DNA of 64,000 bases. Origin: Escherichia coli. Lineage in GTDB: Bacteria > Pseudomonadota > Gammaproteobacteria > Enterobacterales > Enterobacteriaceae. The position numbers are program-made. Position 1 is the first letter of the stretch. Each line of letters opens with the position of its first letter. Location of the stretch: assembly GCF_016903815.1 (NCBI RefSeq), contig NZ_CP069973.1, one strand, 5' to 3'. Of the stretch, positions 15,001 to 21,000 are shown one piece after another.

Positions 15001-18000
15001 AACGCTTACCTTTTCTCAGGCTATTTTTGCTTTTTTTTGCTTTTCCCCGCCACTTTATGGTGATTATCACATCAATATACATCGACAGATATTAACGTAA
15101 CTGAAGTGAGGTGAAGCATGAAATTTGAACGCCATCATGAAATATTGAAACGACTCAGTAAATTCGGTTCTGTAAAAGTATCCGATCTGTCCAATAGCCT
15201 CAATGTAACGAAAGAAACTATTCGTTCAGATCTTAATGAACTTGCCAGGCTTGGCTATCTGACTCGATGTCATGGCGGTGCTTTTATCGTCCTAGACTCG
15301 CTTGATACTATTGCGAAAAATGAAATCGCTTATGCGCTTGAAAATTATGATACAGCCCAGGGAATAAAAAAAGGCCACTCAACTATGAAAAGTCAAGTAT
15401 GCGTTATTGGTTCGTTTAATGTTGATATCATCAGTTATTTGCCGAGGCTTCCCACTATCGGAGAATCGCTTCTGGCAAGTAATTTTATATTTTCACCGGG
15501 GGAAAAGGCTGTAACCAGGCGCTGGCAGCAAGCTTTGCCGATACTGATGTTTATTTCATAACAAAAGTAGGTACAGATCACTTTAGTGATTATGCGATCA
15601 ACTTTATGAATTCGTCTAAGATTTATAAAAGTATAATTTATCAAACGAAAGAAACGCAAACCGGAACTGCCACGATCCTTGTTAATGAAGGTACTGGCGA
15701 TAATGTTATTGCGATCTATCCCGGTGCCAACATGACAATGTCGTCCGATGAAATAACTATTCAGAAAGAAGCGATTATTAATTCTGATGTCATACTTCTG
15801 CAGCTCGAAACAAATTATACCGCTCTGCAACAAGCGATCACATTGGCGCAAAAAAACAGTATCCCGGTCATTATTAACCCGGCACCCTATAATGATATCG
15901 TCAACGAACTTATTCAGGATGTTGATTATATCACCCCCAATGAAACAGAAGCTGGTTTACTGTCCGGCATAGACGTACACGATCTTGAATCAGCTAAACG
16001 AGCTGCAGAAGCTATCCACAATAAAGGGGTAAAAAACACGGTTATCACGCTCGGTAGCAAGGGCTCGCTCGCATTTGATGGCAAAAAATTCATTCATTCG
16101 CCAGCGTTTCCAGCGGTCGTTAAAAATACGGCAGGAGCCGGGGATGCGTTTAACGGCTCTCTGGCATCAGGACTTGCGAAAGGAAAATCACTGGAATCAG
16201 CACTGTGTTATGCCAGCGCCTTTGCATCCCTAGCGGTGGAGACAAGCAATGCTTCCGACATGCCTGAACATGAATCTGTGATACATCGAATTCAGAGTAT
16301 ACATTATCAGCAAACTATTTTTACGCATTAAGAAAGGACAGAGAATGAATAACACCAAAAAATCACTAAAAGTGCTCTTTATTGGGGAATCCTGGCATAT
16401 TCATATGATTCATTCAAAAGGATATGACAGTTTTACCTCAAGTAAATATGAAGAAGGTGCACCTGGTTACTCCAGTGTCTGAAAAATAGTCAGGTAGATG
16501 TCACCTATATGCCAGCACATACGGTACAAATTGCCTTCCCTGAAGATGTGGCACAGTTAGAACAATATGATGCCATCGTTATTAGTGATATTGGTAGTAA
16601 TACTTTCCTGCTACAAAATGATACTTTTTATCAGCTTCGCATAAAACCAAACGCTCTCGAACTGATTAAAGAATATGTGAATAACGGTGGTGGGTTATTG
16701 ATGATTGGCGGCTATCTCTCATTCATGGGAATTGAAGCAAAAGCCAATTATAAAAATACAGTTCTGGCTGATGTGCTCCCGGTTACGATGTTAGATGGTG
16801 ACGATCGTGTCGAAAAACCAGAGGGTGTTATTGCACAGCCATCACAACCTGAACATCCAGTTATTAAAGGGTTCTCTGAATATCCTTTTTTCCTAGGTTA
16901 TAACCGGGCGATCGCTAAAGAAAATGCTGAGGTGGTATTAACAATAAACAACGCTCCATTACTGGTCTTTGGTAACTATCACAACGGGAAAATAGCCTGC
17001 TTTATGAGTGACTGTTCACCGCACTGGGGTACACAGCAGTTTATGTCCTGGCCGTTCTATACCGCGTTGTGGGTAAATATACTGACTCATATTGCAAGAT
17101 AATAATAATAATGGGGTAACTCCAGTTACTCCATTTACTATAATAGAAGGATTGATGTATGAAAAAGAATAAGTACTCAACTCCCTTATGGATGCTTGCC
17201 ACGATTCTTGCGGGTATGCTCTCCCCTATGCAATCAGCGGTGAATGGTCAATTAGGTCACTGGTTACAGGATGGTAATGCATGCGCAGTTATCTCCTTTG
17301 CCAGTGGTTTAGTCGTGATGTTTTTTATTATTATGGCGCGAAAAGAAACCCGGCAACAATTTGCGGCAATTCCTTCTCTGATTAAAAACCGAAAAGTTCC
17401 TCTCTGGAACTGGTTTGCCGGTCTCTGTGGAGCGATGGTGGTATTTTCTGAAGGCGCATCAGCCAGCGCACTCGGGGTCGCAACGTTTCAAACCGCACTG
17501 ATCTCCGCGCTATTGCTGTCTGGTTTACTTTGCGATCGCTTTGGTATCGGTGTCGACGAGAAAAAATACTTTACCCCTTATCGCATCATCGGTGCATTAT
17601 TTGCGGTTATTGCTACGATTTTTGTTGTGTCACCTCAGTGGCATTCTACCTCTTTCATCTTACTTGCCATTCTTCCGTTCTTAGCTGGTTTGCTTGCAGG
17701 ATGGCAGCCCGCTGGAAATGCAAAAGTAGCTGAAGCTACGGGATCCATGCTGGTTTCAATCACCTAGAATTTCATCGTTGGATTTTGTGTTTTAGGCACA
17801 GCGCTAGCTATTCGTGTCGCATTAGGGCACGTCACTGTTCAATTACCAGATGTCTGGTGGATGTATCTTGGCGGCCCGCTTGGACTAATGTCTATCGGTT
17901 TAATGGCCATTTTGGTCAGAGGTCTGGGGTTACTGATGCTGGGGGTTGCTTCAACGGCGGGCCAGTTACTGGGATCAGTATTGATTGACGTATTAATTCC

Positions 18001-21000
18001 ATCGCTGGGCAATACCGTTTATCTGGTCACGATCATCGGAACACTGTTTGCACTGGTCGGTGCAATTGTTACCACTATTCCGGAATACAGAGCCTCGAAA
18101 ACAATGAAGAAAATGGAGGTATAATCATGAAAGATTATCTACAAACTGTGACGGGCCCCGTCGCCCGTGAAGATATGGGGCTAACACTTCCTCATGAACA
18201 TCTGTTCAACGATCTTTCCTCTGTTGTGGATGCTCCTTGCTATCCTTTTTCACAACAGCTTGTTGATAAAAAAGTCACGGCAGAAATCCAGTGGGCATTA
18301 AAACACGATCCTTATTGCTGCGCTGATAATATGGACCGCAAACCTATTGAAGATGTGATCTTCGAAATTAATAACTTTATCTCGCTCGGTGGTCGCACCA
18401 TTGTTGATGCCACAGGGTCTGAGTCTATCGGACGAGATGCGCAGGCATTACGAGAAGTCGCATTAAAAACAGGTCTGAATATTGTTGCTTCCTCCGGTCC
18501 CTACCTGGAAAAATTTGAAAGCCAGAGAATTCATAAAACGGTTGATGAACTAGCGACAACGATCGATAAAGAATTGAATCAAGGGATTGGCGATACGGAT
18601 ATTCGTGCCGGAATGATCGGTGAAATAGGTGTCTCACCGACATTTACCGAAGCCGAGCATAACAGCTTGCGGGCTGCCTCGCTGGCACAGATTAACAATC
18701 CTCATGTGGCGATGAATATTCACATGCCGGGCTGGCTTCGTCGCGGTGATGAAGTACTCGACATTGTGTTAGGTGAAATGGGCGTCTCGCCAAATAAAGT
18801 CTCTCTCGCACACTCGGATCCGTCAGGAAAAGACGTGGCGTATCAGCGGAAAATGCTTGATAAAGGTGTCTGGCTGGAATTCGACATGATTGGCCTAGAC
18901 ATTACCTTCCCGAAAGAGGGAATAGCGCCAGGGGTGCAGGAGACTGCCGATGCCGTCGCTCATCTCATTGAGTTGGGATACGCCGATCAGCTTGTTCTCA
19001 GCCACGATGTCTTCCTTAAACAAATGTGGGCTAAAAATGGCGGTAATGGCTGGGGATTTGTTCCAGATGTTTTTCTGGCCTATCTGGCGGAGCGCGGCGT
19101 CGATAAAACGATCCTCAAAAAACTCTGTATCGATAATCCCGGACGATTATTGACCGCATAAAACCATTATCCCCCGGCACATTGCGCCGGGGGATGTCAA
19201 TTAATACCCCGCCGTTAAATCATCCACCAAGCGCGAGTCGGATGCGCCGTACAACTCACCATCCGACCCAACCATAATGCTTTGCGTGCTGCCCATCGCC
19301 TCATTCAGCGCCACTTTCTGACCTTTTGCTTCCAGCAGCTTGAGCGTATCCGGACTAAACCCTTTTCAACACGCAGCTCGTCCGGCAACCACTGATGGTG
19401 GAAACGAGGCGCATTGGTCGCTTCGGCAACATTCATTCCACAATTGATGCTGTTCACCACCATTTGCGGCACGGTAGTGATGATCCAGCTACCGGTAACA
19501 AAGTGAGTACATAAAGGCCATACTGTCACGAACAGTGCAAAAGTGGCTCTTCCTCAACCTGGGTGAAGATTTTCATGCCAGTGGACTCATTACCCTCCGC
19601 CTAAGTAGTTCAAGTCCGGCTCGACCATACATCTGGCGTATCAGCACCTTCAGGCGATTTACATGACCTTCGACAACACCAGTACTCCAGCGACTGCTGA
19701 TTGCCTCACATATAGCCGCAGCATCAGCTTCCATCCCCGCAGCTACGCACCGAAGTTCTGCTGAGCCGCTTTCGTGGACCCGAGTGAACCAGCTGCTTAG
19801 CTGTGATTTATTTTAGGTTTTCAGAATACGGTAGAACTCGAGTACCAGTTGCTGCGCTATTTTCAACTCCGGTTCTTTTTCACACATCAGACTAATAAAT
19901 CGGAAAGCATAATTTTCTTCACCCCTGATTATTCTCCAGGGCATCAACCAGCGGCTTACCCGGGACACTGAAGGAAGTCTTGCGGCAGTAGTAACCGGTG
20001 GGATCCAGCCTTTATGCCATTTGGCAACAGCATCCCTGACGATGGTTTCACTGCCTGTAACCCCCCTGGCCACCATTTCCCGCCATATCCGGCCGGAGTT
20101 ATAATTACCACATTCTCGTTGCTCTTTTAACCACTCCCTCCATGGGTCCAGAAGCCCTCGCTTTGGAGGCCTAGTTGACATTTCAGGGAATGTTCCTGAA
20201 CCCACCCAGCGACTGACTGTCACTCGCGACAGGCCTGTAATACGGGATATTTCCCTGAAACTACATCCCTTGTTATGCAGGGCCATAACCTCTGTCCAAC
20301 GCTGATGCCGTTTTTTGCGGATGTGCTGTTTAAGGCGTTCCAGACGACGGAGCGATGCTACAGGCACAGATATTTCTGGCTCAGGTGATTTCTTCAGTGA
20401 TAACTCTCTGACAACAAGACGTATCAGAGGCATATATCTGTACATCATTCGTTCAGGCTCATCACCAATATTTTTTAGCAGGTGCCATCGATCGGCCACC
20501 TGTCTGGCCTGAGGTGCACCTTCACGTGCTGCTGTCGCATAGACTCCACTGCGATCACGCGAGACAACCTGTATTTCCGGATATTTTCTGAACCAGGTCG
20601 CCAGCGTACGCTGATCACGGCCGGGAAGCAGGACGAGGGGACGGTGAGTATCAGGATTGACTATTAACATACCGCAGCAGTGGCCCCGATGCCACGCCCA
20701 CTCATCAATACCGACATGAGGCGCGCCTGACTGTTTCGTCTCCGGGGTATTGATAAGCCTGCGAAGAAGAGTATCAGCACTGCAACGGAGACCCACTGCC
20801 GTTGCAGCCCGTTTTCCAGCCTCACCTACAGCTATTAATCCCAGTTGACGTTGTTAATTTTGTAACGCCTGTGAAGACTGCTGGTGTGAACTGGCGAAGG
20901 GAGCAAGCGACTCGGCAAAAATTTTACGTGAACAAGCCGGGTTACGGCAGTACCAGTGGCGGACGGAAAATACAAGCCATAGCGTCTGCCCTGAGCAGGG

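Follow-up and report, generated by a model that had tools for sequence, protein, structure and literature searches.

A 4.5-kb block of foreign chromosomal DNA in Escherichia coli is very probably a cassette that neighbored the gamma-glutamyltranspeptidase gene (ggt) of a donor, now lies in the cobU genomic island (GI-cobU), and has been inactivated step by step in this lineage. We analyzed 64,000 nucleotides of E. coli contig NZ_CP069973.1 (assembly GCF_016903815.1), hereafter the window, in which the block spans approximately positions 15010-19497 and comprises a four-gene cassette followed by the 3' end of ggt. Judging by sequence and gene order, the cassette (15118-19161) is the E. coli homologue of Salmonella rikA(STM3547)-STM3548-STM3549-STM3550. 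Its acquisition is old; its decay is recent, recurrent, and lineage-specific. An earlier interpretation made from the DNA alone (the sequence-only reading) had described decaying metabolic cargo with five recognizable genes within 15118-19530, four of them disrupted. Our open reading frame (ORF) listing and Pfam scans found the same five genes. The four considered broken, namely rikA, a GATase1-like gene, a drug/metabolite transporter (DMT) gene, and ggt, are the same four flagged by the NCBI Prokaryotic Genome Annotation Pipeline (PGAP) in E. coli strain 7/2 (NZ_CP023820.1), which differs from the first 50 kb of the window by 1 base. In that annotation, rikA/PfkB and the glutamine amidotransferase are labeled "frameshifted," the DMT gene "internal stop," and gamma-glutamyltransferase partial and frameshifted, with the phosphotriesterase-related protein intact. 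The block and its borders contain the following features, where IS denotes insertion sequence, HTH helix-turn-helix, and PTE phosphotriesterase:

14584..15009, + strand: IS66-family transposase remnant, left boundary of the block (PGAP of strain 7/2 and terminal sequence)
15118..16331, + strand: rikA pseudogene, DeoR-HTH plus PfkB ribokinase, 404 amino acids if intact (Pfam HTH_DeoR and PfkB; STM3547 homologue)
16345..17102, + strand: GATase1-like (PF07090) pseudogene, STM3548 homologue (PF07090 on both fragments)
17159..18124, + strand: DMT (YdcZ-type, PF04657) pseudogene, STM3549 homologue (ORFs, alignment, and PGAP "internal stop")
18127..19161, + strand: intact PTE-family gene, orthologue of STM3550 and Proteus Pmi1525 (344-amino-acid ORF, PF02126)
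19169..19195, - strand: G+C-rich hairpin, the terminator of the former ggt, in the gap where PTE and ggt converge (fold and position)
19201..19494, - strand: 3'-terminal ggt piece, 294 nt (~98 codons; blast identity to K-12 ggt)
19523..21288, - strand: ISL3-family element with an inactivated transposase at 19573-21192, right boundary (inverted repeats and PGAP)

Alignment to intact homologues had been proposed as the way to enumerate the lesions. As the intact reference we used the allele of strain WP4-S18-ESBL-08 (locus L003), in which the four products are 404, 252, 321, and 344 amino acids long, and found exactly three gene-breaking differences between it and the window, one each in rikA, the GATase1-like gene, and the DMT gene. 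The same three genes are disrupted relative to the other full-length alleles of the species (L090, L092, L096, L098, and L099). In rikA, a run of six G residues is shortened to five (1-bp loss at 15498-15502, codon ~128, within the SPGGKG motif; comparison with L003, L002, and L004). The gene is now two ORFs, 15118-15561 with the HTH and the PfkB N-terminus and 15606-16331, 241 amino acids long, with the remaining PfkB domain, and in the TUM1223 annotation it is listed as "ribokinase RikA, frameshifted." The GATase1-like gene has lost one G between 16460 and 16461 (GGTGCGACC to GGTGCACC), outside a homopolymer, leaving ORFs at 16345-16482 and 16509-17102. The DMT gene, which had been described as split by a frameshift, is indeed split (17159-17767 and 17861-18124), but by a nonsense mutation: TGG became TAG at 17765-17767 (W203*), and because both ORFs lie in the same frame with one substitution between them, this gene is not frameshifted.

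The sequence-only reading correctly saw a frameshift in rikA but listed the joining of a regulator to a ribokinase among the signs of decay. Sequence comparison indicates that this "fusion" is the native 404-amino-acid architecture, conserved across Enterobacterales, and no decay product. Intact E. coli RikA carries HTH_DeoR at residues 5-56 and PfkB at residues 92-382 (Pfam), with D343 in a GAGDAF motif, and thus has the features that define RikA, a DeoR-type HTH (residues ~2-57) fused to PfkB and the catalytic Asp343. Using tblastn, we aligned residues 1-401 of its 404 without a change of frame to loci of over 20 enterobacterial species; single-frame homologues occur in Citrobacter, Salmonella diarizonae, Budvicia, Providencia, Proteus, and Klebsiella spallanzanii. 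For the Salmonella protein (STM3547), ribose kinase activity has been shown biochemically, Asp343 is essential, and translation appears to start at Met90 under the conditions used (PMC13432705). The frameshift in the window lies downstream of Met90 and therefore cuts both isoforms; the next in-frame ORF begins at position 73 of 302 in the PfkB profile.

We assigned the second gene to PF07090. The intact allele encodes 252 amino acids (PF07090, E 1.8e-112) and is homologous over its full length to the crystal structure of STM3548 (PDB 2GK3, chain 2gk3_A; phmmer, E 1.3e-145). This gene had been called ThuA-like and split. The split is real (the 1-bp deletion at 16460/16461), and the ThuA label was discarded: Pfam at E <= 0.01 returned PF07090 GATase1_like only, with no ThuA structure among the PDB matches. 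In NCBIfam, neither the GATase-like nor the DMT protein matched a family.

The PTE-family hydrolase (18127-19161) had been singled out as intact, and we agree. Its 344-amino-acid product matches PF02126 (E 4.9e-47) over profile positions 3-297 of 298 and retains 112 of the 112 residues that never vary across 19 proteobacterial and actinobacterial orthologues. These include the HxH pair H23 and H25, two further His (H199 and H229), and D294, as expected of the PTE family, in which the conserved His and Asp residues are metal ligands. We considered damage by the private change R44Q and rejected it, as Q occurs at this variable position in Citrobacter, Salmonella, and Budvicia. We likewise rejected the intactness of the gene as a sign of selection: PTE was hit in 1 of 12-13 disruption events against ~3.3 expected by length, a deficit that is not significant by our own calculation (binomial tail ~0.11-0.14). 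Its survival in the window may be chance, and the gene is probably orphaned. Certain E. coli genomes keep only part of the PTE gene together with the ggt remnant.

We next turn to the origin of the block, for which the ggt piece is informative. The remnant had been described as the last ~110 amino acids of the protein with a 1-bp loss in an A run; the loss is there (A5 to A4; T run 19363-19366 on the + strand), and the homology is shorter, as listed above. Directly after the ggt stop codon, the hairpin at 19169-19195 forms a 12-pair stem with 9 G-C pairs, then a T-rich tail. The remnant is 92.5-92.9% identical in nucleotides to the last 295 nt of K-12 ggt and only 81-82% identical to Citrobacter and Salmonella ggt, and no E. 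coli ggt was better than ~93% identical to it. In K-12, ggt is not followed by a cassette. At three Citrobacter loci and in S. diarizonae, a convergent ggt follows ~45-50 nt after the PTE stop codon; it is full-length at the three Citrobacter loci, and the fetched S. diarizonae locus ends inside it (residues 413-580). In Salmonella LT2, we take STM3551 to be ggt. The Salmonella and Citrobacter loci match the window in one collinear blastn alignment (15023-19494, ~76% identity) that crosses the spacer between PTE and ggt and enters the 3' end of ggt. Because the cassette stands tail-to-tail with ggt in Citrobacter and S. diarizonae, the remnant is a flank carried along from the donor locus and was never cargo, so its earlier description as decayed cargo no longer holds. 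By sequence, an Escherichia-like donor would have supplied the cassette and a sliver of ggt from its ggt locus, and IS elements would have taken part in fixing them in the cobU island.

To place the lesions in the species, we counted alleles with 81-nt queries centered on each lesion, accepting only exact alleles in the >=99% identity band. Approximately 1,901 of 5,426 complete E. coli genomes (~35%) carry >=80% of the region. The DMT stop W203* was found in 596 of 2,038 records, rikA G5 in the window haplotype in 186 of 1,973, and the GATase 1-bp deletion in 158 of 1,949. A second lineage, that of IHE3034 and NU14, has rikA G5 with another nearby single-nucleotide polymorphism (SNP; 41 of 1,961 records) and a different DMT stop, Q25* (42 of 2,028 records). 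Finally, 50 genomes have an IS2 of 1,331 bp between rikA and the GATase gene, with a 5-bp duplication (AAAGG at 16333-16337); this insertion is not present in the window. Thus 8-9% of carriers have the rikA or GATase frameshift and ~29% the DMT stop, and most carriers are intact at each lesion site.

We then fetched 19 carrier loci and called their lesions. Two of these (L001 and L085) represent the window's own haplotype, with W203* and the further lesions of the window lineage, to which L001 adds IS2; this leaves 17 other genomes. An intact version of the cluster had been named as something to look for in related genomes, and six of the 17 have all four genes intact: L003, L090 (ATCC BAA-2469), L092, L096 (ZH063), L098, and L099. 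W203* stands alone in L002, L087, and L095. It is joined by a 14-bp PTE deletion in L004, a 4-bp rikA deletion in L089, an IS in the GATase gene in L094, and, in NCTC122 (L086), by rikA G5, +6 and +4 insertions in the GATase gene, and a 1-bp DMT deletion. The other main haplotype, Q25* with rikA G5, is that of L088 (IHE3034) and L091, and ISHS7 (L097) combines rikA Q81* and an IS in the GATase gene with an intact DMT gene. In total, at least 12 different disruptions occur among the 17 other genomes, with slippage of the rikA G6 run on two or more SNP backgrounds. Wherever the relevant end of the block was fetched, all 19 loci showed the IS remnants and the broken ggt piece; in L086 and L099, the ISL3 copy and the ggt piece are further shortened.

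These data separate the age of the block from the age of its damage. The acquisition is old, since IS remnants and the broken ggt piece are present in every carrier examined and the block occurs in ~35% of genomes. The sequence-only reading had proposed an old acquisition under relaxed selection; its foreign origin and age are borne out, and the decay is not old, as the three lesions of the window are young and lineage-specific. Relaxed selection on the cassette within E. coli is plausible given the at least 12 different disruptions. Changes within E. coli (24 synonymous and 17 non-synonymous, including 2 stops) fit some relaxation and are too few for a formal test. Over longer times, the substitution pattern clearly points to purifying selection: against Citrobacter and Salmonella, the ratio of non-synonymous to synonymous rates (dN/dS) is 0.01-0.07 where dS is estimable, with dN of 0.03-0.12 and saturated synonymous sites.

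The decreasing counts of W203*, rikA G5, the GATase deletion, and IS2 (596 > 186 > 158 > 50) suggest an order of events in the window lineage. The DMT gene would have acquired W203* first, followed by slippage of the rikA G6 run to G5 in the GG motif and then by the loss of one G from the GATase gene; on a sub-branch that does not include the window, IS2 would have entered between rikA and the GATase gene. In most lineages, though not all, the transporter bears the most widely shared, and presumably the earliest, lesion. We rejected "transporter always lost first" as a universal rule on account of the intact DMT gene of ISHS7 beside its other lesions. The Q81* of that strain lies in the linker between the HTH and Met90. 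If RikA starts at Met90, ISHS7 could keep the kinase and lose the HTH isoform only, making Q81* a natural separation-of-function allele.

We weighed four other explanations of the broken genes against stepwise inactivation. If the frameshifts were sequencing or assembly errors at homopolymers, the genes would really be intact, and the rikA and ggt losses do fall in homopolymer runs (G6 to G5 and A5 to A4). The DMT lesion, however, is a substitution, and the GATase deletion lies outside a homopolymer. Sequencing error does not account for the lesions, because each 81-nt allele was found unchanged in many independent complete genomes (186 for rikA, 158 for GATase, and 596 for DMT) from different laboratories and platforms. 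By count, the alleles also fall in the order expected of stepwise decay. We therefore regard such errors as a very improbable cause. The split ORFs might instead encode small proteins that are complete by nature and work on their own, for instance an independent DeoR regulator and a truncated kinase, which the sequence-only reading had named as a way in which it could be wrong. The apparent Met90 start of Salmonella RikA (PMC13432705) would allow the HTH part to be separable. Yet the rikA frameshift falls past Met90 in the conserved SPGGKG motif, cutting both isoforms, and homologue alignments show full-length, single-frame versions in E. coli and more than 20 species, so that this is the least credible of the four. 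The polymorphism between G6 and G5 on at least two haplotype backgrounds might also suggest a contingency tract that switches the kinase reversibly by phase variation. A 6-nt run is short for this purpose, we saw only G6 and G5 with no longer or shorter variants, and in the window lineage G5 is accompanied by other, irreversible lesions in the cassette; reversible switching is accordingly very hard to credit.

Less remote, though still unlikely, is that the inactivation was adaptive. Host-associated or extraintestinal E. coli would then have gained from losing the transporter or pathway, for example because the imported compound or an intermediate is harmful. Repeated hits on the same genes speak for it: two different DMT nonsense mutations (W203* in 596 genomes and Q25* in 42), slippage of the rikA G run on two or more SNP backgrounds, IS insertions in or beside the GATase gene on three separate occasions, and lesions in Providencia draft genomes as well. 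On the other hand, each tested site is undamaged in the majority of carriers and six of the 17 other genomes are fully intact, the kinds of lesion are those expected from mutation alone, and the G6 run is an intrinsic mutational hotspot, so its recurrence needs no selection. Were adaptive loss true in certain human-associated lineages, the substrate of a module found from Enterobacterales to Actinobacteria would be a widespread compound that is costly to use in their niches.

Several points weigh against the reading we prefer, that of a donor-derived cassette inactivated stepwise in the cobU island. No donor genome with >93% ggt identity was found, and one scan of genome contigs gave no other Escherichia species. 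The order of events is based on allele counts and 19 loci, and the lesions of ISHS7 do not follow it. The window haplotype looks mosaic, its left part like the W203* group and its right part like L003, and recombination could therefore blur the inferred order. RikA scored 285.4 bits against the NCBIfam ribokinase equivalog, under the cut-off of 299.65, and its measured ribokinase activity may be a side activity.

Next, we characterized the setting of the block. Its GC content is 39-47%, compared with ~50% in the surroundings. The ORFs of the window and the PGAP annotation of strain 7/2 place cobU at 12522-13067, followed by IS remnants and then the cassette; the block is thus accessory DNA directly beside cobU, which is what defines GI-cobU. 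The cobU island has been known since 2007-era comparative genomics. Under the names pathogenicity island (PAI) cobU and GI-cobU, its positions in extraintestinal E. coli are given in PMC7545054. The insertions of CFT073, 536, UTI89, and IHE3034 lie beside cobU like that of the window, and the GI-cobU of IHE3034 carries the same cassette with lesions of its own. The published accounts stress the Hma and Fbp iron systems, neither of which is annotated at 13-42 kb in strain 7/2, and the portions cited do not discuss the rikA cassette.

On the left, PGAP of strain 7/2 annotates 14584-14922 as "IS66 family transposase, frameshifted, missing N-terminus," and TAACGCTTAC at 15000-15009, the reverse complement of GTAAGCGTTA, is what we take to be an IS66-type terminal repeat. 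On the right, an ISL3-type element with 43-nt imperfect inverted repeats (19523-19565 and 21246-21288) begins ~30 bp past the end of the ggt homology; PGAP labels its transposase "ISL3 family transposase, internal stop." A composite transposon was ruled out, as the defective elements on the two sides belong to different families, IS66 on the left (a remnant) and ISL3 on the right. An Rfam scan of 13-22 kb matched no RNA family. Promoter-like sites were no more frequent than in shuffled sequence, leaving the ggt terminator hairpin as the only notable signal.

The closest known system is the Salmonella cluster, in which STM3548 (GATase-like, with a published structure), STM3549 (DMT), and STM3550 (phosphotriesterase-like) lie downstream of rikA (McCormick, Jabbar & Escalante-Semerena 2026, PMC13432705). 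It resembles the window in its genes, their order, and their orientation, and in a 404-amino-acid RikA with Asp343 in GAGD; the E. coli proteins are 80-96% identical in amino acids to the S. diarizonae and Citrobacter orthologues, with synonymous sites saturated between the E. coli cassette and the Salmonella and Citrobacter copies. The two differ in location: the Salmonella and Citrobacter cassettes lie beside a convergent ggt, and in the cobU island of E. coli the cassette and 294 nt of ggt are enclosed by IS66 and ISL3 remnants. They also differ in state, the window strain having lost the function of every cassette gene except PTE. More broadly, the order rikA-GATase-DMT-PTE on a single strand is kept at L005-L023, L040, L044, and L082 (tblastn), with such cassettes in Citrobacter, S. 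diarizonae, Budvicia, Providencia, Proteus, and K. spallanzanii (62-96% amino acid identity). Proteus mirabilis Pmi1525 (PDB 3RHG/4QSF) matches the window PTE protein over its full length (E 3.4e-174, 74% identity), and its gene sits in the same four-gene cassette of Proteus (L040), whereas the partner genes are dead in the window. Pmi1525 is a PTE-family amidohydrolase, cited in PMC5341072 as having metal-stimulated esterase activity. E. coli RbsK (PDB 1GQT/1RKD) shares the PfkB fold with RikA residues 94-380 (2.1e-52), and RikA has the GG and GAGD motifs; unlike RbsK, RikA has an extra 90-residue DeoR-HTH N-terminus and other genomic partners.

Two Providencia orthologues are themselves interrupted. 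In Providencia stuartii NCTC11800 (L010, 6927-8160), RikA is frameshifted exactly at the catalytic GAGD motif, and in Providencia alcalifaciens (L082, 10001-11031) the PTE orthologue loses frame near codon 178; each may reflect true decay or an error of the draft assembly. In Actinobacteria (Georgenia, Brachybacterium, Rothia, Streptomyces, and Saccharopolyspora), the GATase-like, DMT, and PTE genes form a block, often with a PfkB kinase that has no HTH (L024-L047 and others, e.g., L024 7198-11023; 41-64% amino acid identity to the E. coli proteins). In certain loci of Pseudonocardia, Actinotalea, and Cellulomonas, the GATase-like gene stands between two PTE paralogues. Among the neighbors at Georgenia and Proteus loci (P450, DUF2252, IclR, RNA ligase, glpX FBPase, and nitroreductase), we found no common extra partner, and the four genes therefore appear self-sufficient.

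The intact cassette would most likely serve the uptake and breakdown of a ribofuranose-type or ester/lactone compound. Transport over the inner membrane would fall to the YdcZ-type DMT protein and processing of the substrate to the PTE-family, esterase-like enzyme and the PF07090 protein. RikA would then phosphorylate a ribofuranose-like product and perhaps autoregulate the operon through its DeoR HTH. The presence of the cassette core in Actinobacteria suggests a general, still uncharacterized pathway. Intact strains (e.g., ATCC BAA-2469 and ZH063) and natural knock-outs of each gene provide a ready genetic series for finding the substrate. The event in the window is itself ordinary pseudogenization of accessory DNA, already visible in the RefSeq annotation, in a known island and a cluster named in the 2026 paper. 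The value of the analysis is modest and mainly clarification: the regulator-kinase "fusion" is the original state, the ggt scrap is a trace of the donor locus, and the lesions, though real, are recent.

We also noted other features of the island and its surroundings, as annotated in strain 7/2. Three tRNA-Asn genes (5330-5405, 7154-7229, and 9563-9638) lie just upstream of cobUST, with no large island annotated between them; in other extraintestinal pathogenic E. coli strains, sites named for asn-tRNA genes (asnT and asnW) house the high-pathogenicity island and the colibactin island, according to PMC7545054. The island contains an apparently intact IS100 (IS21 family, istA/istB) at 26462-28263 (- strand), in contrast to the IS4, IS66, and ISL3 copies around the cassette, which are defective. 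Beyond the ISL3 element, at 21476-23101 (- strand), are two zinc-ribbon genes of 408 and 402 nt that share 13 nt, and a gene for an "inovirus Gp2 family protein"; the zinc-ribbon pair and the inovirus Gp2 gene are kept beside the cassette in most loci that reach that far. In a CP4-44-like segment at 40274-41104 (+ strand), the cbeA antitoxin is annotated as intact and the cbtA toxin as frameshifted, which adds one more minor case of decay to this island. The "intact operon at 32-36 kb" of the sequence-only reading corresponds to a run of genes at 31121-36576 (+ strand), all annotated as intact, for a GTPase family protein, a dynamin family protein (798 amino acids), an RdcB-family protein, and a patatin-like phospholipase; this combination looks like a membrane-remodeling or possible defense module.

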